The translations under genes were made by a program, and so were the position numbers. The notes beneath the pieces are model-generated. The model had not been told where the DNA came from. It saw only the letters and a program-made list of their open reading frames with translations, and made no database searches. From contig JALAGF010006591.1 of assembly GCA_030167865.1 (NCBI GenBank), positions 1 to 44,680 on the forward strand: a stretch of DNA of 44,680 nucleotides. The letters are read 5' to 3'. The DNA comes from Craspedostauros australis. Its lineage: Eukaryota. This document shows positions 4,376 to 21,557 of this stretch, one piece after another; position 1 is the first letter of the stretch; each line of letters starts with the position of its first letter.

Positions 4376-4854
4376 GCAGCGACCAGTACAGTACTTTCGA
4401 CCAATTCGACCGCGTCGGTCTTTCAATCTCAATGATATTTTTTCGCCGCTTCGTGCTGTTTCGAGTCTTGTGCGGTTTCGGTGGACACAAGTTGTTCCAC
4501 AGCGGCATTGAAAATGACTGATGGAACAGCGATTTAATCGAAACTTCATGGGAGCGACGATGGGTGCGACAAGGAGACGTGATTCGACCTACAGGCGCTG
4601 CGCGTGTGTGTGGAAGAACCTTTTGCTTGTGGGAGATGCACGGAACACGGTAGCGGCGATGTTATCGGTGGCAGAAGAGAGAGGAGGAAAGGTACTTCGG
4701 CAAACAGAGAGATTGCGCCCAAGGCGAAAGCAACACACCACCGCACGCACTTGTTGGCATCCAAGAAGGTGCACGCACAGACATCGTGCCACCACTGCGA
4801 CCCGCGACAAAACACAGAGCAACCAAGACCGGTGAGTTCGAGAAAGCCAAGGCA

Positions 4855-4896
4855 AGGAAGGAATCGAGGAAGGAATCGAGGAAGGAATCGAGGAAG
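4855..4896. repeat. 12-bp tandem repeat (AGGAAGGAATCG) x3.5
   Basis: Perfect units at 4855, 4867 and 4879, plus a partial unit at 4891, in the kinesin upstream region. Confidence 0.9.
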
Positions 4897-5230
4897 CAAG
4901 CGAGGTGACCGAACAAACCACCATCGACAGCAATCAAAAGGCAAGGGGAGGAAGAACAAGAACAAAACAGAGCAAAGCAAAGCAAACAAAGCAAGAAGAG
5001 AACAAAAAGATTCCATTCCTGCAAGAACGGTTGCTGCGATCTCCCTCGTTGACTCTCAGGGAACATTCCGCCATAGCACGACTTCCGCAACAGCACGACT
5101 TCCGAGACGTCATCATCAACATCGTCAACCGTCCAGACGAGCAGCGTGGGCAGCACCAACAGAAGCAGCACAGGAAGTCCTCCCTCCATACCAATACTTC
5201 AGCACTTCAGCGCTTCAGCAGAACACCACG

Positions 5231-7432
5231 ATGACAGCTCCGGTGGAAAAGAAGATGACGTCGCCGACGGTGAAGAAGAAGAAGAAGACCAAGGCATCAT
5301 CATCGTCGTCGTCGTCGTCCACACCTGCGTCTTCCTCGTCATCATCAGGAGGCAACAAGCGAAGCAAACCACCGTCATCGTCGAACGTGAGGGTGGTGGG
5401 CCGCATCCGCCCGCTCGCAAAGTACGAGAAGGAGAAGGGCTGCAAGCAGGTGGTTGCGAAGGTGCCGTCGTCCGGAGATGGCGAGGCCCCCGATGGCCCG
5501 GAAGTCCTCCAGATCAAGAGTCCCGAGAAGCGGTGGTTCGAGCTGGACGCCGTCTTCGACGACACCTCCACGCAGCAGGCCGTGTACGTCACATCGGGGG
5601 CGCAGCAGGCGGTGTGCGAGGACATCTTCCGGGGCTTCAACTGCACCATCCTGGCCTACGGACAGACGGGGGCCGGAAAGACATTCACGATGGGCACTGC
5701 GGCCGCCAAGCGCGATGGGGAGACGGGGGAGTCCACGATCGGCGAATCGGACGGAGTCATCCCGCGCGCCTGCCATGACCTCTACAGGATGATCAACGAC
5801 AAGTGCGATGGCAACGCCACCGTAGAGCTCTCCTACATGGAGGTGTACAACGAGGAGATCAGGGACCTGCTCTGCGACAGCGGCAGCGCCGCCATGCTCC
5901 GCATCCGCGAGAATCTCAACGGCGAGGTCTACGTGCGAGGCTTGCAATCGCAGGTCGTCAAGGATCCGGGCGACATCGGCATGCTCATGGAGGAGGCATC
6001 CAGCCGCCGCGTGGTGGCCTCGACCAAGATGAACGCCACGTCCAGTCGGAGCCACGCCATCTGCGTCCTGCGCGTCAAGGGGGTGCTCGAGGATTCCACC
6101 AAATTCCAAGCCAAGCTCACGCTCGTGGATCTCGCCGGTTCCGAGCGCATCAAGAAGACCGGCGCTGGCGGCAACCGCGCGCAGGAGGGAATCAACATCA
6201 ACAAGGGGCTCTTCGTGCTGGGTCAGGTCGTCAGCGCCCTGTCGGAGCAGAGGCCCAAGCTCAAGCGGAAACCGCCCTATCGCGACAGCAAGCTCACCCG
6301 ATTGCTGCAGGACTCCTTGGGCGGCAATTCGCGCACCATCATGATCGCCTGCGTCAGTCCAGCCGATTTCAACGTAGAAGAGACCGTCACCACGCTGCGC
6401 TACGCCACCAGTGCCAGGAACATCCAGAACTCAGCCACGCGCAACGTCATCAAATCCATATCGCCCGAGGAGGCCGCCAAGCTGCAGCGGGAGAATCAGC
6501 TCCTCAAGAAGCAGGTCGGCGAGCTGCAGAACACGATCAAGGACATGGAGAAGCAACTCACGATCCCGGAAAGCAGCTCGGATGAGGAATCCCTGCAGCT
6601 CGAAGACGCCGTCGATAGCAAAAACAAGAAAGGAACGGACGATGCTCACAGTGCCAAGGATGCAAGAATACAAGAACTGGAAAAGGAAGTCAAGACGTTG
6701 AAGCGAGATCTCAGACGGGCCAACGGCGACATCCGAGAATCCTTGCACGAGACCGCCATCGAGCTGCCTGCCATGAAGGTGCAGATGGCCATCCTCGAGG
6801 ACGAGCTGCACGAAAGCCAATCCATCAACACCGAAGTCCACGACCTGCACCAGGAACTCGAAGAGGCGAAGGCTGAGGCGCATGCCGCCAAAGCCGTGGC
6901 CAAGCGTCTCACCAATATCCTCGAGAAGAACGAAGCCTCCGCCGAGACCCACCTGTCCATATCGGAGGGCGACGAAGAGAAGGTCCAATTCGCCAGCCAG
7001 CATGAGATGGAAATTCAATGGGTCCAATTCGTCTTCATGGTGCTCAACACATTCCAGGAGAACATGAGGCAGCTCGGCGATTACTTCGAGATGGTCTCCA
7101 GAATCGTCGACTCGCCGGATATATTGAAGATGCTGCCGCGTCAGCAACAGCAGATGCGCAACTCGGATGGTAGCATGCCTCGCAAACGGTGGTGGAATTC
7201 GGCGTCGGCGGCAACGGACTTGGCGGAAGGATTGCAGGAGGAGATGGCGCTGCGGCAGAAACTCTTGACGGAGCATATCAATTTTTATCAGGAACGGTTC
7301 CTGGAAGTTGAGGACAAGATTACGGGCCGATCGGAAGTTGTAGACACGATACTCGAGACGCTGCGGCAGGGCAAGACGCGCGACTTGGGCATATTGCCGG
7401 AATTGACAGCGATATTGATCGATGTGATGTGA
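5231..7432 (+). CDS. Kinesin motor protein, kinesin-4 (KIF4/KIF21/KIF27)-like, ~733 aa
   Basis: First in-frame ATG at 5231. Motor motifs RIRP, GQTGAGKT, NATSSRSHA, DLAGSER and PYRDSKLTRLLQDSLGGNSRTIMIACVSP are followed by coiled coil. Single exon. The subfamily call is based on motif resemblance only. Confidence 0.93.
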   Translation: MTAPVEKKMTSPTVKKKKKTKASSSSSSSSTPASSSSSSGGNKRSKPPSSSNVRVVGRIRPLAKYEKEKGCKQVVAKVPSSGDGEAPDGPEVLQIKSPEKRWFELDAVFDDTSTQQAVYVTSGAQQAVCEDIFRGFNCTILAYGQTGAGKTFTMGTAAAKRDGETGESTIGESDGVIPRACHDLYRMINDKCDGNATVELSYMEVYNEEIRDLLCDSGSAAMLRIRENLNGEVYVRGLQSQVVKDPGDIGMLMEEASSRRVVASTKMNATSSRSHAICVLRVKGVLEDSTKFQAKLTLVDLAGSERIKKTGAGGNRAQEGININKGLFVLGQVVSALSEQRPKLKRKPPYRDSKLTRLLQDSLGGNSRTIMIACVSPADFNVEETVTTLRYATSARNIQNSATRNVIKSISPEEAAKLQRENQLLKKQVGELQNTIKDMEKQLTIPESSSDEESLQLEDAVDSKNKKGTDDAHSAKDARIQELEKEVKTLKRDLRRANGDIRESLHETAIELPAMKVQMAILEDELHESQSINTEVHDLHQELEEAKAEAHAAKAVAKRLTNILEKNEASAETHLSISEGDEEKVQFASQHEMEIQWVQFVFMVLNTFQENMRQLGDYFEMVSRIVDSPDILKMLPRQQQQMRNSDGSMPRKRWWNSASAATDLAEGLQEEMALRQKLLTEHINFYQERFLEVEDKITGRSEVVDTILETLRQGKTRDLGILPELTAILIDVM

Positions 7433-8585
7433 TTACACGAGTATGATGATGCTGCTACTGACGCCAATGATGATGCTGATGGTCGTGGCAAATGGGACGA
7501 TGCATGCAACGGCGATGATGATCCATGATGCGATTTGAACGATGCCGTGGAATGAGAATCCTTATGGTACGAGTACGATGACCTCGTCTTCGACCTCAGC
7601 GAGTACTTGGATTGCTGAACACAAGCAACCAATTGTGGGCACACTGCCTGCTTTCTGACAGGGGTCATCACGCCGATTCTGCTCTGATGCTCCTTGCAGA
7701 ACAGTGGAACATATTATACGTGATTTCACCGGAAGACCAGTGAGTACGTACGAGAATGAGGCAAGGAGCAACAGCGATAGCGATAGCAACCACGACCATT
7801 CGACTTAATCCCACCCGGAGCAACCGAATTACAACAGTTCGGCGAGCGGGTGAAGACAGGACAACGTTTGCACGTGCGGCATGTGGCAGGCCAGAACGAT
7901 GAGAGAAGAACTCATCGCTGCGATCAGGACAACAGCCTATTCTCTGATGTTCCTGGTCTACTCATGTTCCGTGGCGGTCGACACCACTGCGAGCAGAACA
8001 GGACGAGCGCAGCAAAGAAAGGCAAGGCACACGAAAGCACGGTAGACAGAGAAACAATTCTCTCAACGATATGATCGAGCTCACGCACTCATCATCATAA
8101 TTAGCAATTAGATTGTGGTATGCAAGGCAATCACTCATTGTCCTGAGATATCGCTTCTCCTTTTGTCTTCGGTCTTGCCTCCAAGCACACCTTGATTCTG
8201 TCTCCCAACATATCTAGCCTTGATTGCATAGACTGTCGCGCGGTCGACTCATCCGAATGTTCGTGTTTTGAAATTCGTGAAAATAACCGCCACATTTCAA
8301 AACATCACCCAACCAAACCCACAAACGAACACAAGCCGTCTCCAACGCGACATCGCACACCAGACACATTCGTTCAGACAACATTCACGACCATCTTCAT
8401 CATCAGCATTCACACTTTCACCTTTACTGTCACTTTCGCTATCATCATCATCAAACCATCACCATCGCCATCACCACCAAAGCAAACTTCATTGAAGCCT
8501 TGTTTTCCACACAAGGACGCGACAGTGGAGGAGAGTACATGGACCGACAGTGTTCACACAAGCAAACACATTGACGGCGAACAAG

Positions 8586-11500
8586 ATGACGTCCGTTGAT
8601 CTCAACGCGCTGTCGATGCGCTCCCGAGTGATGCAAGATGTCACGAACGACTATGAGGACGGTGGGGCTCCGGCCGAACCCGATGATCTGGGCGCTTCGT
8701 TGCGACGCAAGACGTTGGCACGCAGGAAGAGCAGGAGCAGCATGGCGCATGGCGGAGGAGCATCCATGATGACGAAACGTCGACGACGTTCCTCTGCCCG
8801 CTTCCTGCAGTTGGGAAATGGTGGCGACGACGACGATGATGCCACCGTGGCCACCATGGCAACGAATGCCACGCTCTCCAGCACCATCGGTGGCAACGGC
8901 GGCGGTAGCAGCCGGAGAAAGACCAACCTGGGTGAACTCTATCAGAATGTCATCCGAATGAACGCGGAGAACAAGATCAACGTCAACAACACCTGGAGCC
9001 TGTCGTTGATCGATCACATGGATAGGTTCTTGAAGGATGACATGCACTCGCACAACGCGCACCATTCCTCCTCATCGCACGGCCACCATCACGGCAACGA
9101 AGACGATGGCCGAATGAACCAAACACAGCCTGGTTCCAAGGTCAACTTCACACGTGCGAGCTGCACGTTGGATGCATCCGTTAAGATCTACTCATACCGC
9201 GTGGACGATATTCATCTCACATCGTACAAGGTCTTGGCCAACTTAAATCGCTCCGACACAGGCAAGAAGAGCAGGAAGAGCCAAGGCGGAGGTGACGGTG
9301 CCGATGGTTCTGGCGACGACTCTGGCAAGCAGAAGAGCAGCCGCAAGTCATCCAATGTTGACACGTTGGAGCGGAACATGGGTGCGTGGCACGTGTACTT
9401 CGAACTCAACTTCTGATCAATTCATGGATCCACGTATTGTTCACGTGTATGTATCCGTGCGCGTATGCTTCATGCCATTTCGCGGTCGACAGCCGGTTGC
9501 TGCGTGACATCGTCGATGATAGTTTTGCCGTTGTTGCCACTGTCTTCTTTTGACATCGTTTCTCACATCAATGTGCCTTGTTTACTTCACCCATTCCACT
9601 CGTACTCGTATCACCATTCGCTCCACTATGTGCATTGGACACATCATGATGCTTCTGGTTGTATCCCTGCAACGACCTCTTCAACTTCCGTTCAACGGGC
9701 AACAGCAAACATCAACATGCAGAAGCTGGACTCCGCATTCGACATCGATCCGTTGTTCCACAAGATGTCCAAGGCCTTTGACGAAGGCGGTGCCAAAGGT
9801 CTGCTCTTGGCGAATCTCGCCGTCGGACCAAAAGGGTGCAACATCGTGTTCGATTCCACGTTGGACGACGAAAAGGCAACTCAACCAACAGCAACAAATG
9901 AGAGCAACAGCAACAGCAATAGCAACGAAGGCGACGAGTACAGGGGTCCAGATGAGGACAAGGAGGAAGCAGACCCAACGTGCGATGGCACTATTGACAT
10001 TTCCGGCTTCAACACCTACCTCGACGGCCTCTTGGGAGGCAAGTCCCTCGAATCGCAGCCCCTGGTGCCGCAACTCGCTGGGTTGAGAGGCGAGTACTCG
10101 CAGCTGGAAGAAGAAGGCTTTGTTGATCACAATGTCAAGGTAAGCAACCTGAAACAATCACGAGATGGTGTCGGTGTTGCTACTCTCGCCACTGTGACGA
10201 CAGTGGCCTTGGACGGTATGAACGCATTCAGCACAACTGGCCACTATACGCTCACGTGAACGCACATGCTCACGGTCATATATCCATACGCTCATCTTGC
10301 ATTCTATCCGCGCCCTTTCATACCATACACACCATCCATCGATTTCATATGACAACAGCGCAACCGATACGCAAGTTCACCAGAGGAAGAGAACGAGGCC
10401 GATCGTTCCATTCATCAAGAGGCTTTGGAGAGGAGCCGGGCTTCCGCTGGAGCGTTTGGTCGTTCGTACAGCAACGACGAAACCATGGATGATGGATCCG
10501 GCGAAGGGACGAACATGTTCAGCGCTGATGACGACTTCGGCGGAGGCTTCGAGCTTGGTGGGGATGGCGACGACGACGACGACGGCTTCGATGATGGAGA
10601 CAACGCAGGCGGTTTCGATATGTTTGGAGGCGGAGCTGATGGCGTAGGTGGGAGCCTCTTCACCGATGGGGATCATCGCTTCTCCTCCTCCAGTTTCCAG
10701 GCCGTGCCCGCTGAAGCAGAGTCATCGCAGGCATCGGTGTTGCTAGACGCCATCGCGTCTGGTGACATCTCCACCTCTCAATCAAACTACGAGTATCTGA
10801 ATTCGCAGGCATTGGAGAAGCTGCAGCACAGCAACGCGTGGGCAGGATCCATGCATTGGAGAAAGTCGAGCCGACGAGCGGCAAAACTCAAGGCAACCGA
10901 GGAGGAAGATGGCACCGACTCTCTGCCGAAGGGAAGCCAGAAGAAAAAGAAGGGCCGATCGAAGAAGGATCCTTCCACGGTGTTGGTATCATTCCAGTCC
11001 GACATCGAAGTGGAGAGCCTGGGAGATCTTCTCCGCAAACCACCGAAGGGACGCAAGGGGGTTGACCCTTTGCAGCTGTCGAAGGCCGTGAGAACGAAGC
11101 ATTCGAAGGCAGACAACTTGCTCCCCATCGATGCGGATGTCGGAGTGCAGCAACTTTCCTCGCTGTTCCTGCGCCCCAATGTGGATGTCGATGACCTGAA
11201 GCGAAGCGTCTCCGCGCCCACCAAGAGCGTTGGTTTTGGCGGCGTCGAGATGATGGAATGGGGCGGTGATGACGATGTCAACAACGACGGGGACTACGAC
11301 GGGGACTTCGACGATGATGACAACGGCGGCGGAGGGTTCCATTTCAACGATGATAACATGAATGAATCGAAGGATGACTTCACCATCGAAGAGTTGGAAG
11401 GTGTCCGTAAGGTTGAGAAGATCCGCGTTGGATACGCCACCGTCGCCAAGAAGGTCGACGTGAAGAAGCTTAAGATTGAGCTGTGGGAGGAACTGGAAGT

Positions 11501-11840
11501 AGCCCTGGGAAAGAAGCAACTGCGACAAGACGAAGAAGGAGGTGGTAATGATGATGAGGCAAAGGAAGGTACTGATGATACCGTCGAGGATGACGATGAA
11601 TCGCGCTCAGAGACAGATCCCGAAAGCGCTGAGTATGACGACGACATGGTGGACGGTGAGGATATGCGCACATCCAAGGACGCCCTGTCCTTTTACGACA
11701 CTGTGCAGGACATGCAAGCGTCCCAATCCCAAGGCGACGTCACTCTCCCGTTCTACTTCATCTGTCTCCTCCACCTCGCCAACGAGAAGGGCCTCGCGTT
11801 GGAATCGAAGGGCTTGGACGACTTTGTCATTCGAGGTTGA
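8586..11840 (+). CDS. NCAPH: Condensin I kleisin subunit CAP-H (Barren/Brn1/Cnd2), ~903 aa, 3 exons
   Basis: Exons 8586-9381, 9706-10139 and 10359-11840 join in frame (introns GTGCGT..AACAG and GTAAGC..AACAG). Kleisin motifs: ENKINVNNTWSLSLIDHM, NFTRASCTLDASVKIYSYRVD, DPLFHKMSKAFDEGGAKGLLLANL, WAGSMHW, GYATVAKKVDVKKLKIELW, FICLLHLANEKGL. Confidence 0.96.
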
Positions 11841-12206
11841 TTGCAAAGTCTGAGATGGGGATGTTGCAAGGAAAATGTAATTCGTAAACATGGTACAACA
11901 TGACATCCGTCGAAGTATTATATGATGCTGGTCTGTGGTACCTATTCTGGTATGATGCTCCTGGGCAGGAATTGCAATGTGATGATTAGGCTACAACTCA
12001 AGTGTAGCCCTTGGCGTTTTTTAATCTGCTCTCTGGTCCCACCAAATCTCGTGTTGTTTGATTGAGTCGTGAGCCGGTCACCCCACATTGTTCGAATGAA
12101 CACGACGCGTTTGGGGAAGTGGAGAAACAGTCACAAAAGAAACGGGCAACTCGACAACCAACGGAACACAAAACAGCACAAACCAGGGACGACTTCAAAT
12201 ACAAAC

Positions 12207-12210
<4 letters not shown>

Positions 12211-12244
<34 letters not shown>
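12211..12244. repeat. (AG)17 microsatellite
   Basis: Perfect dinucleotide run. Confidence 0.95.
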
Positions 12245-12245
<1 letters not shown>

Positions 12246-12371
12246 ACTTGGAAGCAACAGCTATACTCCATCAGAAACGCATCAACGCACGTAGACGTCG
12301 TCAGCTTATCTTCGCCGGCGTGGCTAGTAGAGCACGTCGCTAAGGCTTCCATAAAGCCAACGAGCGGAGGC

Positions 12372-15300
12372 ATGTCGAGTGACGGAGAGGAATGGCGGAA
12401 CGATCAGCAGCAGCAGGAGGCGGTTGGTTTCGAGAACGAGGAGGATGCAATGACAAACGACGGAAGTGCGCGGTGTGCAGAGGATACTTCCGCGCGAGGA
12501 CAGCAGCCTTGCATCGAGGTTGACACCAATGACGACAGCGATGCTCATGCTGCGACCGAAAGCAACGGCCAGGCAGGCACCGCGTCTCCACGTGCAGCCA
12601 CAGCAATCCCCCCAAGTCACTCTGCATGCGACGACAACGTTAGCAATGCTTCCCTGATCTCGGCACCGCTGAGGCAGCATGAATCTGAGCATGGCGACGG
12701 CAATGAAGATGGACAGGACGACGTTGCTGCAAACGATGCCGAAGGCGATACAGTTGAGGGCGTCCCAGATGCAACAGCCGGTTCGTCACATGCATCGATG
12801 GTACTTCCGATACCGAGACAGATACCACCCGCGTTACCTGCTGATCTCCCGCAACACTCAGGGAGGTCTTATGCTGCAGCATCATGGTCAAGGTCCAGAT
12901 CAGTACCAGCGCTGGCCTCAGCGTCAACATCGGCACTGGCATCGGCGCCTCCATCAGGTCCAAGTAGGGCATCGGTAGCTGCATTGCCGTCAGCATCAAC
13001 TTCGGCATCAACTTCGACATCAACTTCGACATCGACGTCAGATGAAAAGTCGGTGTACCGCCACAGCGCAGCTTCGACAGTGTTGTTCGCAAGCGCTCAG
13101 AGGCTTTCGTCACCACCGCAACCTCCACCGATGCGGCCCATTCAAGCTGTGGCGGTCGAATCAGGAGCAGGAACAGGCGCGTCCACATTGCCACTGCCCG
13201 TGTCGAACACCGCCAGGGACGCTACTGCCACTGGCAATGGCGACGAAGAAGCTGCGAACGACGATGGAACCAACGGTCCTTTGCACACGCGGCACGACAC
13301 GATGGACCAAACAGACGGCAGAACCACAACCTCCAGCCTGTCAGGACAAAGCAGCAACGCTGTTGCCCACCCTGGCGCGGTCGCCGTGCAAGGCATGGAT
13401 GCACAAGCTTCCGCAGTAACGGCATCCGTCACCACCCGCCAATCACAACAGGATGTTCAGACCTTCGATGTCCACTATGATGAAGAAGACCCATCGGAGC
13501 AGCAGACGCAAACCACCATCTTGGAAGCAATCCGTGTGGACGAAAGCGAGGAACGCCCGCTGGCGTATGCGAAAGCCATTCGCGGCTGCACTTCGAAACG
13601 ATACTGCCAGATAGTAATTGGGATTATTGGTGCCATTGCGATTCTCGGGGTTGGGGTCACACTGGGAATACAGCGGGGCATTGATTTGGGATCGGGTGGC
13701 GACTCGGAGGATCCTCCAGGTGTAGGCGTTGATAACGACAAAGTAACGCCACCGCCGATGATGGCTCCAGGGCAGACGATAAACACGATTATGAAACGAG
13801 GCAGGGTCGTCTGCGGCGTGCAGGAAGATCTGCGTGGATTCAGCGCGTTCAATGCAACCACCCAGACGCGGGAGGGATTTGAGGTCGATCTCTGCAAGGC
13901 CCTCGCTGCCGGCTTATTTGGCACGCATGAGGGTCACTACGAGGTCAAGGTCGTGGCATCGTTGGAACGATGGACAGCCCTTGCGACTTACGAGATCGAT
14001 GTCGTGACTCGTACAACCACGCACACGATGGAGAGGAGCGTGTACCACGCCCCGACGAAACGCGGGTACACCTTCTCCACTCCGTACCTTCACGATGGTC
14101 TGCAAATCAACGGCAAACCTCCATTCACAAGCTGCGCGGAGAATTTCGAATTCGTTGGAGAGTGCAAAGATCTCAACGTGTGCAGCTTCGTCAACTCGAC
14201 GCATTACGACACATTGAGGCTGTTCTTTCCGAGCACCAAAATCGTCGTTGGCGAGGCTGATGACCGCGTGGACAATTTCGTGGCAGGCGAATGCAATGTG
14301 ATCGCCGGGACGAGCCACGAAGTATCGGACGAGGTGATCCGATCCCATGGCTACAACGGAAGCTTGGAATACGGCAGGCACATATGGACGAAGGAACCGC
14401 TGTGCATGGTGACGAGAGAAAACGATTCAGAATGGTCCTCCTACGTGGACGCCATCTTGCAAGGCCTCATGGCGGCGGCCGAGATGGGGGTCACGCAATC
14501 GACGGCCAGCAGCTTTCCCAAATCGGTTTGGCATATCCGAGATTTCGACAGCATGTACGCCGATGCGGTTGCGTCTGTGGGGAATTATCTGGAGTTGTAC
14601 AGCACGAACATCCGATCCGCGGGTCTCGCCAAAAGGATGAACGCCATCAACAGTGGCACGGGGATGCTGTACGCCTTGCCTCACGGATATCCCGAACAGG
14701 AGGGCCCAAGGCCGGCGGAAGGCAGCAAATTGAACGCCATCCAGGTGGCCCAGAAGCTCCGATGCGGCATGATGACGAACCAAACCTCGCTTGGTGAAGG
14801 ATTTTGCTTGGCCATCGCCGCCGGGATCTTTTCGGACGTGCCGGATGCGAGGGTGGAGTGGGTCTGGTACGAGGCACACGAGGAGCTCTTGCTCGCGGTG
14901 AGCAATGGAGAGGTCGATGTGGCAATGGATGTCCCGGTCTCCGCCGAGGCCGCCTTCCAGTACGACATCACGTTCTCGTCGCCGTACTTCTTTCCGTACG
15001 ACGAAGAAGACGGCGGGGTGTCGCTTGATGGAAATGGACAGCAAGCGTTGGAACTGCCCGATCATGACCGCGCGGTCGGTCTGGCGGCCTCCAATTCGGA
15101 TCGGCAGTTCGCCAAGTTCTGCTTCTGGATCATGACGGCGCCCGTCATCTCGGAGGAGGACGAGCTGCCGTTCAATGACATGGTATTGGTGGGCCTGTTT
15201 GGTTCGTCGTACAAGCGCATGTTCCGCGATGCCGTGCTGTTCGTCGGAGACTACAGTCGCATCTACGAAAGTTATGAGATTCTGGTGGGACCGCGGCGTG

Positions 15301-15389
15301 GTCGCAACTTCATCAACCTGTTGGAAACGCGCGGTCCACAGCATCTGCCGTTGCTATTTGGGTCCAACGTAACGTCGTTGGTGTGGTAG
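12372..15389 (+). CDS. Single-pass membrane protein with two AapJ/BztA-like amino-acid solute-binding domains
   Basis: Acidic disordered N-terminus, PGAVAV motif and a TM helix IVIGIIGAIAILGVGVTLGI. Domain 1: TIMKRGRVVCGV...GFEVDLCKALAA...ERWTAL...EIDVVTRTTTHTMER...FSTPYLHDG...WTKEPL. Degenerate domain 2: KLRCG...FCLAIAAGIF...NGEVDV...TFSSPYF. The start is uncertain because an in-frame ATG also lies at 12096. Confidence 0.85.
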   Translation: MSSDGEEWRNDQQQQEAVGFENEEDAMTNDGSARCAEDTSARGQQPCIEVDTNDDSDAHAATESNGQAGTASPRAATAIPPSHSACDDNVSNASLISAPLRQHESEHGDGNEDGQDDVAANDAEGDTVEGVPDATAGSSHASMVLPIPRQIPPALPADLPQHSGRSYAAASWSRSRSVPALASASTSALASAPPSGPSRASVAALPSASTSASTSTSTSTSTSDEKSVYRHSAASTVLFASAQRLSSPPQPPPMRPIQAVAVESGAGTGASTLPLPVSNTARDATATGNGDEEAANDDGTNGPLHTRHDTMDQTDGRTTTSSLSGQSSNAVAHPGAVAVQGMDAQASAVTASVTTRQSQQDVQTFDVHYDEEDPSEQQTQTTILEAIRVDESEERPLAYAKAIRGCTSKRYCQIVIGIIGAIAILGVGVTLGIQRGIDLGSGGDSEDPPGVGVDNDKVTPPPMMAPGQTINTIMKRGRVVCGVQEDLRGFSAFNATTQTREGFEVDLCKALAAGLFGTHEGHYEVKVVASLERWTALATYEIDVVTRTTTHTMERSVYHAPTKRGYTFSTPYLHDGLQINGKPPFTSCAENFEFVGECKDLNVCSFVNSTHYDTLRLFFPSTKIVVGEADDRVDNFVAGECNVIAGTSHEVSDEVIRSHGYNGSLEYGRHIWTKEPLCMVTRENDSEWSSYVDAILQGLMAAAEMGVTQSTASSFPKSVWHIRDFDSMYADAVASVGNYLELYSTNIRSAGLAKRMNAINSGTGMLYALPHGYPEQEGPRPAEGSKLNAIQVAQKLRCGMMTNQTSLGEGFCLAIAAGIFSDVPDARVEWVWYEAHEELLLAVSNGEVDVAMDVPVSAEAAFQYDITFSSPYFFPYDEEDGGVSLDGNGQQALELPDHDRAVGLAASNSDRQFAKFCFWIMTAPVISEEDELPFNDMVLVGLFGSSYKRMFRDAVLFVGDYSRIYESYEILVGPRRGRNFINLLETRGPQHLPLLFGSNVTSLVW

Positions 15390-16092
15390 AGGAAAGGATA
15401 GAAGACTGGATAGATAATGTGTGCTAGCTACTGCAATGGAATGTGATGGGCGAACTGCGGACTTGTCAGTTGCGGGGTCTGTTCTTTCCACGTTCTCTCT
15501 ATCCTCATTGGTAGATTAGTCTCCACAGACACCAGCATGGTTCACTCAGCAGAAGGAAGACAAGTGAGTTGTGGTGGATCCTCTCTGCACTCGACAGTGA
15601 AGTATTATCATGCAATTAGGAGTTGTTGGTGCCAGTCAAACAGTACAACTCCTGCACTGACTACTCCACAAGTACACGTACAACGCACAGCATCCAATGA
15701 CACAGAACAAACACAGTGATGACACGCAGCCGGAAAAGCGCACATCACAAGCGTTGCTGAAGCAAACGCAGAACACAACTGCCTCCGCACCCACAGCAAT
15801 CCCTCCACGCTTGGTGCTGTGCTTAGCCTTGCTCACTTGCATCATCGATCCTTCCCAGCTGACCTTGGTGTTGACACTCACATTCGCATCCGCACCTTCA
15901 CAAGTGTTTGGACAGCCATCATCCGCGCTCATCCTTTCCTTCGGAACCATCACTGTCCAAGGAAGGTCTGCTCCAGCTGCGACTCCAACTCTATCTGCCA
16001 CAACCTCTCGGCTATTTCAACAAGCACAAGGCAACGACATCCAACGCAAGACCGCCACAAACGGCGACAACGAGCTTCAATCCACAGGCACC

Positions 16093-17151
16093 ATGAGCAA
16101 TGACACGAGGCACTCGCAGAAAGACGCGTACGACACCCAGGCTTTGCGATCGGCCATCCTGGAGGTCGGTGTCAAAGCAGGTCGGCTGTGTCATGTCGCC
16201 AATCTGCACATGCCGGGATCCATCGCAGACGAACAACCAGCCAAGGACACCTGCACGTCATTGTCGAAGCCGGAGGTTGTTCTGTCCGCCATCGTCGAAC
16301 TGCTCGTCTCGTTGCTGGAGACAACGGCGATCCTCGAGTTGGATCTGCTGACGTCGGTTCGCAGCAAGCTTGCGTTGAACGCCAAGAAGTACCCGGTGGA
16401 GTTATGCAAGGTGAGGAAGGATTTGGGCAATTGTGCGCTGTTTGGAACGGCGGCGTTGATACTTCGTTGATGCTATCAGGTGGGAGCGATCAGAGCCATG
16501 TGGAGATCTCTCCATGAACGCAGGCATTGCTGGCAGTATTGTGCGAATCATCATTCATTAACTCATATGTTCCCATCGTCTCCTATTTGTCGTCAACATG
16601 TTGGGCTACATCTTCACAATCGCAACTACAACGTCACAACTATAACGTCACAACTACAACGCCACAACCAAACATACTAATGATCGAGCCAACAGGGCAA
16701 AGCGGGCAAGTACACCAAGTATTCAAATGTCACCGGCGTTACCAAGGACAACCAATCCACGCTGGACGAAACGCAACCAGATACAAATGGCCAAGCAGAC
16801 AACAACGACGACGACGTCGCATCGTCCGGGTTTGATAAACAGACGATGTCCCAAACCTTCGTGGGTCATATCCGCATCCTGTGCGACGATCTCGAAGAAT
16901 TCGCGGTGGCACGGTTGTGGTCCAAGTACCATCTGCCGCGCAATATCGTCTTGGCATTGTTGGGAGAAGTGGGGGAGTTGGCGGAGGTGGTGCAGTGGCA
17001 TGGGGATGAAGCGGCGTCCACCGTGTCCTTGCAGGAACGTGACAAGCTGTCCCAGGAATTGGCCGATGTCACGATCTACTTGCTGCGATTGACGACAGTG
17101 GTTGGTCTAGCATCGCGACTGGAAGCAGCCTGTCAAGAGAAGGTGGCGTGA
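16093..17151 (+). CDS. DCTPP1: dCTP pyrophosphatase 1-like (MazG/all-alpha NTP-PPase) with two modules, 2 exons
   Basis: Exons 16093-16410 and 16696-17151, phase-0 intron GTGAGG..TACTAAT..AACAG. Exon 2 carries FAVARLWSKYHLPRNIVLALLGEVGELAEVVQW...QELADVTIYL. The exon junction gives SKLALNAKKYPVELCK/GKAGKYT. The true start may be upstream, at the in-frame ATG 15697. Confidence 0.85.
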
Positions 17152-17545
17152 TGCATCCACAATCATGATGCGTGATGGGGTGAACACCAACACCAACGTC
17201 AGCATGTCAGCTTCAATGGGATGTCATGAGAGGCACAGGTTGGAGGCGTCACACGCAAGATCTGAACACCCATATCTGCATCTGCATTTACAGCTACAGC
17301 TGCAGCATGGTAGAGTATGTCGCATACTCCATTCCAGTTGAACATGACACTATTCGGCTGTAAAATGCAATATGTGTAAATTATGTATTCATTATGTCGT
17401 GAGTGCATGTACGTCATGCAAGTGTAAAGTTTCGGAGATGCCAGCGATACGCTGCTGCTTCATTTGCACACAGCATCCTCATGAGAGGCTCCAACGATTG
17501 AGCCGTCGGTCTTTATGCGATGACATCTCCCATTCCTTCATGAAT

Positions 17546-19318
17546 TCAATCATGTTGACTCCTCCCATCCCGGGCAACGTGCAACTGCGGTAGCTGCGGC
17601 AACCGCAGATTCGCAATGAACGGAAGCTTGTTCTTCTCCTCATTGATGGGAACGACCCCGACACGGCTATGCTTCGCGGACAGCAACTTGCCCACGCCCG
17701 GCTTCGAGCCGCGCGGTGACAGCATGTGCGCCAGTTCCGAAAGATTGGCATCCAACGCTTCCTTTTGCTCCTGCGGCATCACCTTACGCCGACCGGCGGA
17801 CTTGGGCGTGGCCCTCATGGATTTGGGAATGCCGCTGGCGCTGTCGATGGTTTCACGTGCCGGACGTGCGCGTCTGTTGCTGCGCACCCATTGCATATCG
17901 GTCGTGACGGATGTTGGCGACGACATGTCATCATCGTCGTCGTTGGTCTTCGTCGTGCGACTGGTTCTGCCCGATCTGGAGCGGCTGCGTCTGCGTGGCT
18001 TGAGGCGTGAGCGGCTGCTGGCGGAGGAAGCGCGCTGACGAGATTTGGATCGGCGCGATCGCTGCTTCCTCGTGCTTGAATCGGCATCGTCCATGCTTCT
18101 GCCACTGCGGGGTTCCTGACGCGGCTTGTCTTGGCCCGATGACATCTCCACGACTTGGCCTGCCCTGCCAAAGTCAATTTGGAGGCAGCCATTGCCGGTG
18201 GCGTCCTCGGCGTTGGGCGACGCCGGAGGCGATGCTTTGCGACCCGGAGACGTCTCGGAGCGGATCGGAGACGACACGTCAGAGGCGACAGAGGGCGGCG
18301 TCTTTGGACACGTGTTGGACGACGTCGTGCGGCGCTTGGCACGGTATGCCGCCGAGTGCCTTCCAGGCGATCTACGGCTGCGGCCGCTCGTCGGAGTGCG
18401 CGGGCCTGTGACGTGTCTGCCCCTGGGCTTGCTGCTGCCGCCTCTCAGGGCCATGGTGCCGGTGTTGGAGACCATGAGCGTGGCATCGTCCGAATGCACG
18501 GTATCCGCATCGGTGCCTTGATGCGATTCCAGACGCAGCTGCAACGCGGACGGCGGCGAGCTCGGTGGTGGCGGTGGTTGCGACGAACCTCGCGACCTCC
18601 TGGACGGCGAACCGACGGTTTGGTTGGGCTGCGACGTCGTGCTCTTCGAGGCCTTCTTCCTGCAGCCGCGACGCAGAGGAGCCGACGAAGACGAACGCGC
18701 CTTTTGCACCGACTGCGAGTTGGATGTCAACGAACGCGATCTGCGGACGCGTGTCTGCGATTGGTTGTCGTCGGTCACATCGCCTGACTGGTCTTGCGAC
18801 GAGCTTGCAAAGGAGGCGTTCATCTCGGCGACGACAGAGCCCGACAAGGACCTGCTGCGTCTCTGGGCGCCCGGGGACCTCGGCACATGCTGCGGCCTTT
18901 GTCGATGCTGTCGTTGGGGGCGCTTGTGCTGGTACTGCGACTTGGACGGCTGGCGATACCTCACTTGCTCGCGTTCATCGGCGGCACCTTCGGTCGCTGC
19001 GGTGCAGCCATTGCGATCGCCTGCGGCAGCCGCGGCAGCTGTGGCGTAGGGATGTTGCGTGGCCTCGCCTTCTTTCTCTTCACTCGCATGCGTCGACGTG
19101 GACTCCTCGCCCGTGATGCCGGACATGACGGAGACCGACATGTCATCGGCAAGCTGGTTGTAGGGTTTCGGAGACTTGCGCTTGTTGCGGTTGTACGCCG
19201 CCATTCTCAGGTCGGAGAAGTACGATTCCAGCTGCGGCATGAAGCTCGTGGATGCCGACATGGCTGACATCGCGGATGACGACTCGTTGTTGCTGCTGGT
19301 GTTGTTGGTCTTCTTCAT
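17546..19318 (-). CDS. Hypothetical Ser/Arg-rich intrinsically disordered protein (~590 aa)
   Basis: Long single ORF with coding-like GC3, first true ATG at 19318 (MKKTNNTSS...) and a CA-rich leader upstream. No recognisable domain. Confidence 0.7.
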   Translation of the reverse strand: MKKTNNTSSNNESSSAMSAMSASTSFMPQLESYFSDLRMAAYNRNKRKSPKPYNQLADDMSVSVMSGITGEESTSTHASEEKEGEATQHPYATAAAAAAGDRNGCTAATEGAADEREQVRYRQPSKSQYQHKRPQRQHRQRPQHVPRSPGAQRRSRSLSGSVVAEMNASFASSSQDQSGDVTDDNQSQTRVRRSRSLTSNSQSVQKARSSSSAPLRRGCRKKASKSTTSQPNQTVGSPSRRSRGSSQPPPPPSSPPSALQLRLESHQGTDADTVHSDDATLMVSNTGTMALRGGSSKPRGRHVTGPRTPTSGRSRRSPGRHSAAYRAKRRTTSSNTCPKTPPSVASDVSSPIRSETSPGRKASPPASPNAEDATGNGCLQIDFGRAGQVVEMSSGQDKPRQEPRSGRSMDDADSSTRKQRSRRSKSRQRASSASSRSRLKPRRRSRSRSGRTSRTTKTNDDDDDMSSPTSVTTDMQWVRSNRRARPARETIDSASGIPKSMRATPKSAGRRKVMPQEQKEALDANLSELAHMLSPRGSKPGVGKLLSAKHSRVGVVPINEEKNKLPFIANLRLPQLPQLHVARDGRSQHD

Positions 19319-21557
19319 AGTAGAATCGTACTTCTGGTAATGCTCTTGATTGTTTGACTGGTATGCCAACAACTTGACTGCTTGAGTTGTGCAGTGGCGG
19401 AGACCTGTTTTTGTGCTGGCTGTCGATTTTGTGAGGGCGAACCGCAAACTGGTATCAGATGATCAGTTTGTTGTTGGTGTGTATTCCTACTGTATCGTGT
19501 GGTATAGTATGGTACAGTATGTTATGTTGATGTTGACGGCGGTTGCAGTCGCAGTTGCTTTCCTCAGAGATTGTGAGAAACTCAAAAGACCTTGCAGCTC
19601 GTCGCCAACAATTGCAGATGCTTCGTCGTTCTTCTTAACCCTGTCTGTGATGAGGATAAGCGTTGCTGATGTTTGTGGCGCCGTTTGATGCCGTTGACGT
19701 TGTCGAGGGCGATGGATGCCGTTATGCCTCTCCGTTCCATCTGTTCAGCCCTACTCACCCCCGTACGATTAGTTCGGAGAGCCCAGTAGAGCAGAGTATA
19801 GTAGTCCTTTGAGATGGTATAGCAGTTCGTATGAGTGCGCGTGTCTGGTAATTGTATCTGCGTCCGTACGGGTAATAATTGCTCTGGGATTTGATGCTTT
19901 GTCGCTGTCTTGTTCGTTCCTTTTGGCGTCGCCTCTCTTGTGCGAGTTCCTCCTTGTTGTCCTTGTTATTGACCTTATCCGTCCTGTTGGTGTTGTCGCG
20001 CTGATCCCGTTGTATCATGTGCTTTGGACGGTATCCGTTGGGAGATGGTCGGAGAAGGATCGTGTGCTGTTGTCCGCAGCGTTGATGGCGTGAGAAGCGC
20101 GGCTCCGTCATCTCCGTCCAAGACTGTGAAACTTCGTTGGTCTTGCCTTCGTATTCCTTCCTTTGCCTCCTCTCGCTTCTCTGTTGTCTCGTTTCGCTTG
20201 TGCCGTGTTGCGTAGATCCTTTCTCGCGTTGGTTGCAGCCGTTTACACTTCGTCCACAGCCTCGGTGTGACGAGCATGATGCGCGCACCCTGGATGGCTG
20301 CAGCAACGTATGGTACCGCGCTTCACCTCACACCTTCTCTTCCATCCCTTCCACATTCCCCCTCCGACATCATGAGTGGGGATGAAACACATTCAGGTAC
20401 AAGGCATTCCAACTGTTGACGTTGGTTGATGATTTGAAAGTTCGGCGACAAAATGTGACAAGAATTCAAGGATTGCGCGTTGGGCTTTGTCACGCGTGTG
20501 ATTTTATTGAATCTTGTCGACGATTTTAGTCATCTGTAACACACGCAAACTCAACAACAACAACGACAATGAACAGCCTGCACGAGCACACTTCGCTCTG
20601 CGTTGAGAGACAGAGAATGCCCAGCAACACTGTTGCGACTGGTACACACGATCGTGGCAGAGTATCACACAGCTTTTTAGAATCACAGCCACCATGGCCC
20701 TTTCCGGCAACGCATTTTCGCTCGGCTCTACCTTTCCTTTTGTTTGAAGATGAACAAGAAAGCTCCCTTCTTGATCCGATGTCAATAAACGTTACGACCA
20801 ACAACTATCCTATCTTCGCGTTGGCATTCATTCGTGTTCCGTTTTTCGCATGTCTGACTTCAATGTCAATGTACACGTCTCTGACTCCTTCGAGTAACAA
20901 CAACATCACAATTGCATTTCTATATCTTATTTCACGTAGTTTCCAATGTTTGTCCGAAGCTGAATCAAACAGTATCTCAGTTAGTCCTTCCGCCGAATAC
21001 GACTAGACCGACCGCACAGAGAATACAACCAATGACGATGACAGAAATGGAAAGCGTCATCCAACAACCAACAACGGAATGAAATGACCAATGGCGTTTG
21101 CGCGTGTGTTTTGGTGGTCATCAATGGGCCGACGTGGTGTTGGCTGACATACGACAACGCGTAAGCCCTCCTGCGCAACTTTTACTCCGGTTTCTTTCGC
21201 GGGGTCTACCACGAATGAGAATTCGCGACAGAGGGCGAAAAGACGCAACTTCAAAAACGCAACGCAAACCACGACAACACCACAACCACCCATCACACGA
21301 CGCCAAAAGACACCCAAGACAGAACAATTTGCACACACGAGCAAAGTACGCGGTTCGGAGCAGTAAAGACTGCAGCCACAACTAGCGACATCACAGACAA
21401 GACCACGCACAACACAGAAACCAAACCCGATTTGCGTTCTGTCATTGTTTTCTTTTTGCTTCTCGTGCGAAGACCTCTCTCCTCCGCACTGTCCCATAAA
21501 ACCACAACACCCTCCTCCACAACCGTTCGGACGACCACTCAACTTACCCCCGCCACT

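Follow-up and report, generated by a model that had tools for sequence, protein, structure and literature searches.

The window, by which we mean the whole stretch of 44,680 nucleotides of Craspedostauros australis DNA analysed here, carries on its forward strand a two-exon gene whose spliced product of 257 aa contains two modules, module 1 (M1) at the N-terminus and module 2 (M2) at the C-terminus. Its features are as follows:

15794-16092 (+): 5' untranslated part, lacking an ATG and lying within the cover of the spliced contig described below.
16093-16410 (+): exon 1, module 1 (106 aa, P0001), with degenerate helices 2', 3' and 4' and then NAKKYPVELCK.
16378-16395 (+): NAKKYP motif (exon 1 N96, K99, Y100, P101), counterpart of N125-P130 in mammalian DCTPP1.
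16411-16695 (+): phase-0 intron, GT..AG, 285 nt, skipped by the contig, its position kept in relatives.
16696-16761 (+): conserved tail GKAGKYTKYSNVTGVTKDNQST, the continuation of module 1.
16762-16857 (+): acidic linker, variable.
16858-17148 (+): module 2, helices 1-4, lacking NxxKYP; its key residues, in exon 2 numbering, are F69, R73, W75, H79, E91, E94, W101, E121, D124 and Y128.
17149-17151 (+): stop codon TGA.
17152-17402 (+): 3' untranslated part, contained in the contig that spans the exons.

The genes around this DCTPP1-like gene (an SBP_bac_3 protein, a Ser/Arg-rich open reading frame, a kinesin and a condensin) are unrelated to it, and no second, canonical DCTPP1 gene was found within the window. 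Directly upstream (12066-15389, +) lies a long open reading frame whose extended low-complexity N-terminal part is followed by a solute-binding domain of bacterial type (SBP_bac_3, E 1.6e-9), and beyond this frame are condensin subunit 2 (Cnd2, 8496-11840, +), whose division over three frames implies introns, and a kinesin motor gene (4583-7432). On the downstream side a convergent Ser/Arg-rich open reading frame of 638 aa (17546-19462, −) is without a Pfam match, and its 3' end is covered at 17419-17656 by a contig of the public run X1 (presumed RNA).

Exon 1 starts with the ATG at 16093 and its frame stays open to 16410, where it ends in LNAKKYPVELCK (…NAKKYPVELCK) followed by GTGAGG, and exon 2 (16696-17151, +) begins with GKAGKYTKYS and ends with QEKVA and TGA. 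The intron has the borders GTGAGG…CCAACAG and contains in-frame stops at 16468, 16678 and 16681; a 14-nt tandem repeat, CAACTACAACGTCA, occupies 16623-16668 within it (3.3 copies, 90% matches). A 1324-nt contig of X1, a run whose RNA nature is only guessed, matches 15794-16408 and 16694-17402 with 0 differences, leaves out exactly 285 nt bounded by GT..AG, and runs past the stop codon to 17402 with no further joint. X1 gives no cover ahead of the gene, at 15477-15784, and far less cover downstream from about 17402, and this pattern, together with the exact intron-sized gap, is what a transcript assembly gives, though X1 is only presumed to be RNA. Upstream of the ATG the frame is open in the DNA, in an extension that falls outside the contig's cover. 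The first-pass annotation had proposed that the two exons are joined by splicing, and this single error-free contig spanning both bears the proposal out; the same contig, and transcriptome-derived orthologues that read through KYPVELCKGKAGKYT without interruption, speak against separate transcripts for the two exons. A downstream exon supplying NxxKYP to module 2 was considered and ruled out, there being no such frame in 17152-17545 and the contig being unspliced through the stop.

Exon 2 passes the Pfam MazG model (PF03819) marginally, scoring 22.3 bits (E 1.6e-4) where the cut-off is 22, and module 2 matches solved DCTPP1 chains at E 7.6e-15 (about 1e-14 over exon 2 residues 67-133). All the acids that serve as Mg ligands are present, namely E91 and E94 in the ExxE of helix 2 and E121 and D124 in the ExxD of helix 3. 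The module ends 61 residues after the G of GExGEL, 2 residues ahead of the expected start of NxxKYP, which in canonical relatives (n = 16) stands 61-63 residues after GExGEL. An NxxKYP behind helix 4 is not a feature of every module: module 2 is devoid of it in the window and in 130 relatives. When a profile of 18 homologues was compared with mouse DCTPP1 it matched in two stretches, positions 153-240 (the C-module) on residues 30-117 (3e-29) and positions 80-121 (the end of the N-module, with helix 4, NxxRYP and KYT) on residues 103-144 (3e-6). The set of DCTPP1 pocket residues whose roles are described in excerpts of PMC13291643, PMC13616921 and PMC2954211 (W47, F50, H51, W73, Y102, N125 and Y129) is present and shared out between the modules, with W75, Y78, H79, W101 and Y128 in module 2 and N96 and Y100 in module 1; the equivalent of His38 is absent, its place being taken by Ile, Val or Leu in 119/119 proteins.

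Module 1 is without metal ligands and retains NxxKYP and the KYT tail. By alignment, its K28 and R31 take the place of the two Glu ligands of helix 2, and the positions of E95 and D98 are occupied by A65 and E68. Its homology rests on profiles, since BLASTP gave no alignment between the two modules of the window and exon 1 had no match in Pfam (nor in the PDB); a word-based search with module 1 for longer proteins also found nothing. An HMM of module 1 only, built from 53 exon-1-type fragments, matches mouse DCTPP1 residues 44-143 in the expected register (E 1.2e-12), so that PRS..IL..G..G.L falls on PRNLLLALVGEVGEL. In hhalign comparisons, module 1 minus NxxKYP matched module 2 (119 sequences; prob 94.2, E 1.2e-7), and module 1 matched the 16 canonical single-module proteins both whole (prob 98.7, E 2.2e-16) and minus NxxKYP (E 6.2e-10); an earlier hhalign run with 16-17 rows had been weak (prob 19, P 0.0012) and became strong once 119 rows were used. 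From these HMM, profile and hhalign matches we take module 1 to be a diverged DCTPP1 module without helix 1. Four points of the first-pass annotation hold up here: that the normally C-terminal DCTPP1 motif precedes the core, as the swapped order of the two profile stretches on mouse DCTPP1 confirms; that module 2 has intact catalytic motifs and stops before NxxKYP, as its spacing from GExGEL shows; that module 1 keeps the helical pattern with its acidic ligands gone; and that module 1 is MazG-like, which it had proposed to check by just such profile comparison.

Protein searches yielded 297 proteins, which were sorted by motif order, and a profile search returned 929 proteins at E <= 1e-10, of which the best 120 were listed. 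Among the matches listed, at least 130 have NxxKYP before GExGEL, transcriptome entries included, 16 have the canonical order and 3 have both elements twice. Two-module entries among these matches come from Cylindrotheca, Nitzschia, Fragilariopsis, Pseudo-nitzschia, Seminavis and Amphora, and also from Thalassiosira, Skeletonema, Cyclotella and Leptocylindrus; for one protein, P0010, the Atlas has a model (pTM 0.76, pLDDT 0.74), and searching the Atlas revealed no informative neighbours. The survey of the architecture that had been suggested at the outset has thus returned, across the genera listed, at least 130 proteins of the diatom type and, from a brown alga, an intact tandem. The MMETSP transcriptome of Proboscia supplied two entries, P0020 and P0204, the first of which groups within the pennate Bacillariaceae in the module tree (P0204 is not in the tree); this placement suggests contamination of the Proboscia culture, and because of the clustering with Bacillariaceae these entries were left out of the taxonomic breadth. 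Nearly all exon-1-type fragments (58/59) depart from the conserved sequence straight after LCK, mostly with a Val read from GT, and 27 exon-2-type fragments begin with junk and then continue with GK.GKYT; judged from these fragment ends, the intron position is common to the relatives.

Conservation was scored in 119 near-full-length two-module proteins, a set chosen with the regular expression N..[KRQ][YF]P plus GExGEL; E95, D98, Y102, W47, H51 and the tail played no part in the selection. The equivalents of E63, E66, E95 and D98 in module 2, and of Lys121, Asn125, Lys128, Tyr129 and Pro130 in module 1, are found in 119/119, the N, the P and the helix-2 Glu pair being partly conserved by construction because the expression fixed these columns. 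Module 2 also has the equivalents of W47, H51, Y102 and R105 in 119/119, with that of W73 as W, F or Y, and in module 1 the equivalents of W73 and Y102 are gone. Of the four acids, module 1 has lost all in 55 proteins; a single one survives in 58, and two survive in 6. Module 1 retains the equivalents of Arg54 (116/119) and Gly65 (118/119). The tail, C-K-G-K-x-G-K-Y-T-x-Y-S-x-x-T-G-I-T-K-x-x-Q, is almost invariant among relatives and has a conservation of 0.79, on a par with the catalytic helices (0.82 and 0.78), while the C-end of module 2 is variable (0.30). Within the helices of module 1, residues at the predicted interface with module 2 are more conserved than the rest (0.54 vs 0.35, one-sided p 0.0012).

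This interface was predicted with ESMFold2 from the products of exon 1 and exon 2 given as separate chains, our alignments not being an input. The two modules were placed together with ipSAE values of 0.89, 0.89 and 0.90 (0.00 for the top-scoring of 3 controls; the mark is attained by 51/78 solved complexes and 2/108 mismatched pairs), a score that may reflect resemblance to the DCTPP1 dimer rather than prove binding, since DCTPP1 dimers have already been solved. The runs had at least 80% of contacts in common, with a partner pLDDT of 78. In the predicted complex, helix 3 of module 2 runs antiparallel to helix 3' of module 1, and helix 2 packs against helix 2'. Helix 4' rests on module 2's helix 3, beside the E121/D124/I127/Y128 face; N96 and Y100 of module 1 and helix 1 of module 2 (F69, R73, W75) are part of the interface. 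Exon 2 residues 1-44, which make up the tail and linker, received no confident placement.

A tandem with both modules intact was found in a database entry from the brown alga Discosporangium mesarthrocarpum (P0292). Its chain has two MazG-like Pfam stretches, is collinear with the diatom proteins and, by tblastn, with both exons of the window gene, and carries after the KY of its M1 tail a motif that resembles the diatom one; unlike the diatom proteins, it has helix 1, the ligands and NxxKYP in both modules. In a tree of modules, the diatom M1 sequences form a clade on a long stem (SH-aLRT 97) and the M2 sequences another (87), with matching subgroups; the two P0292 modules have no resolved position.

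Mammalian DCTPP1 (RS21-C6; PDB 7mu5, 2oie, 6sqw, 2a3q) has the helix 1-3 core, the four metal ligands and the W47, H51, W73 and Y102 seen as equivalents in module 2, and the helix 4, NxxKYP and KYT seen in module 1. It differs in being a homotetramer of single modules that each contain every element, whereas the diatom protein divides them between two unequal modules fused in one chain, and in having His38 where the 119 two-module proteins have Ile, Val or Leu. As described in excerpts of PMC13616921 and PMC13291643, three chains contribute to every DCTPP1 site: one gives Trp47 and Phe50, a neighbour gives Trp73, and another gives Tyr102 and Tyr129, the latter lining the pyrimidine pocket; an excerpt of PMC2954211 describes a dimeric four-helix bundle and the recognition of deoxyribose by Asn125.

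In our judgement the diatom protein is probably a single-chain pseudo-dimer of the DCTPP1 branch that arose by tandem duplication and reciprocal loss and has one predicted composite site per chain. An ancestral tandem duplication would have given two fused modules with two composite active sites, one of which would have decayed as a unit in the diatom line. Module 1 would have lost its four acidic Mg ligands along with helix 1 and the equivalent of Trp73, and module 2 would have lost NxxKYP and the KYT tail, the parts that would have served the dead site. Helices 2' and 3' of module 1 would remain paired with their module 2 counterparts, helices 2 and 3, in a central four-helix bundle, and helix 4' would lie on helix 3 of module 2, offering its Asn and Tyr to the catalytic centre there. 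The live site would then consist of helices 1-3 of module 2 together with helix 4', the Asn, the Tyr and perhaps the tail of module 1, acting in trans, and Trp73 may be supplied across the interface by module 2 of a second chain. Each chain would thus have one working dNTP pyrophosphatase site, for which, from the sequence, dCTP-like nucleotides are the most likely substrate. The duplication and reciprocal loss were already put forward in the first-pass annotation, and the intact brown-alga tandem fits them. One structural detail sits poorly with a simple trans model: according to an excerpt of PMC13616921, a single adjacent monomer contributes both Tyr102 and Tyr129. Should these two tyrosines be in cis to the metal ligands, helix 4 would have to be swapped for the simple trans model to hold.

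A different account, which we consider unlikely, makes module 1 a structural or regulatory pseudo-enzyme partner that stabilises module 2 or binds another factor through its tail, with NxxKYP standing outside module 2 catalysis. The tail is indeed conserved far beyond any known catalytic need and has no placement in the complex model, and the C-terminus of human DCTPP1 is flexible and dispensable for the crystallised cores (excerpt of PMC13291643). This account has to face the role of Asn125 and Tyr129 as substrate contacts in the canonical enzyme (excerpts of PMC2954211 and PMC13291643), the retention of their equivalents by every module 1 in the set, at the predicted interface with module 2, and the fact that module 2 has no copies of its own.

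A plain circular permutation, in which module 2 takes its fourth helix from helix 4' with NxxKYP and the tail, folded back onto it, and the N-terminal stretch is unrelated filler, would fit the order of tail before core and the weakly conserved C-end of module 2; we regard it as very improbable, given that helices 2' and 3' align to canonical DCTPP1 even minus NxxKYP, that module 1 aligns to mouse DCTPP1 residues 44-143 and keeps the Arg54 and Gly65 equivalents, and that the diatom proteins are collinear with the intact tandem P0292. The phrase 'circular permutation in progress', used when the gene was first read, is rhetorical, because the form is stable from diatom to diatom and its module 1 helices show conservation at the predicted interface. 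That a gene-model or assembly artefact has joined a decayed copy to a working gene by chance is scarcely credible: an internal Met in module 2 (exon 2 residue 51) would allow separate translation of that module, but both exons lie in one spliced contig of X1 (presumed RNA), at least 130 proteins, transcriptome entries among them, have the same order, the intron site is kept in the exon-1-type fragments that leave the frame after LCK, and module 1 is under strong constraint.

The single-chain pseudo-dimer would be a clear natural case of reciprocal loss within a fused homodimer with shared active sites, in an architecture that is widespread in a major phytoplankton group and annotated only as 'dCTP pyrophosphatase 1' or 'MazG-like'; a literature search on DCTPP1/MazG in diatoms (full-text, in part by title and start of abstract) returned no paper on it among the matches listed. 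It offers a testable model of which parts of the DCTPP1 site act across subunits and of how single-chain enzymes could arise from MazG-like oligomers. More tentatively, and with slightly less than even confidence, we suggest that single-module relatives, the brown-alga tandem and the diatom proteins form a living series from homo-oligomer through fused dimer to asymmetric single-site enzyme, in which the unit of loss was one composite site and not one module. If so, the series would demonstrate, through evolution, a trans action of NxxKYP and the tail, and would serve as a model for the origin of the single-chain dimeric dUTPases. Within this view the CKGKxGKYTxYSxxTGITKxxQS segment, which is invariant, may act as a novel lid or regulatory element.

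Other enzymes of the superfamily share parts of this design. E. coli-type MazG also has two tandem MazG domains in one chain, of which the N-terminal one is dispensable. It belongs to another branch, rNTP-directed and without the Asn discriminator (excerpt of PMC2954211), its listed active-site acids (Glu171-Asp196) lie in the C-terminal half (excerpt of PMC10014863), and reciprocal loss of a trans-acting motif is not described for it. Dimeric dUTPases such as that of Campylobacter jejuni (1w2y) hold the whole four-helix bundle in a single chain and are thought to be duplication products of MazG-like ancestors (excerpt of PMC2954211, citing Moroz 2005); they are far more diverged and have no recognisable DCTPP1 motifs, whereas the diatom protein shows both halves clearly. 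Two further database proteins, P0260 and P0272, are tandem DCTPP1 chains with identical or nearly identical halves, and on account of this near-identity we read them as either recent independent duplications or assembly artefacts.
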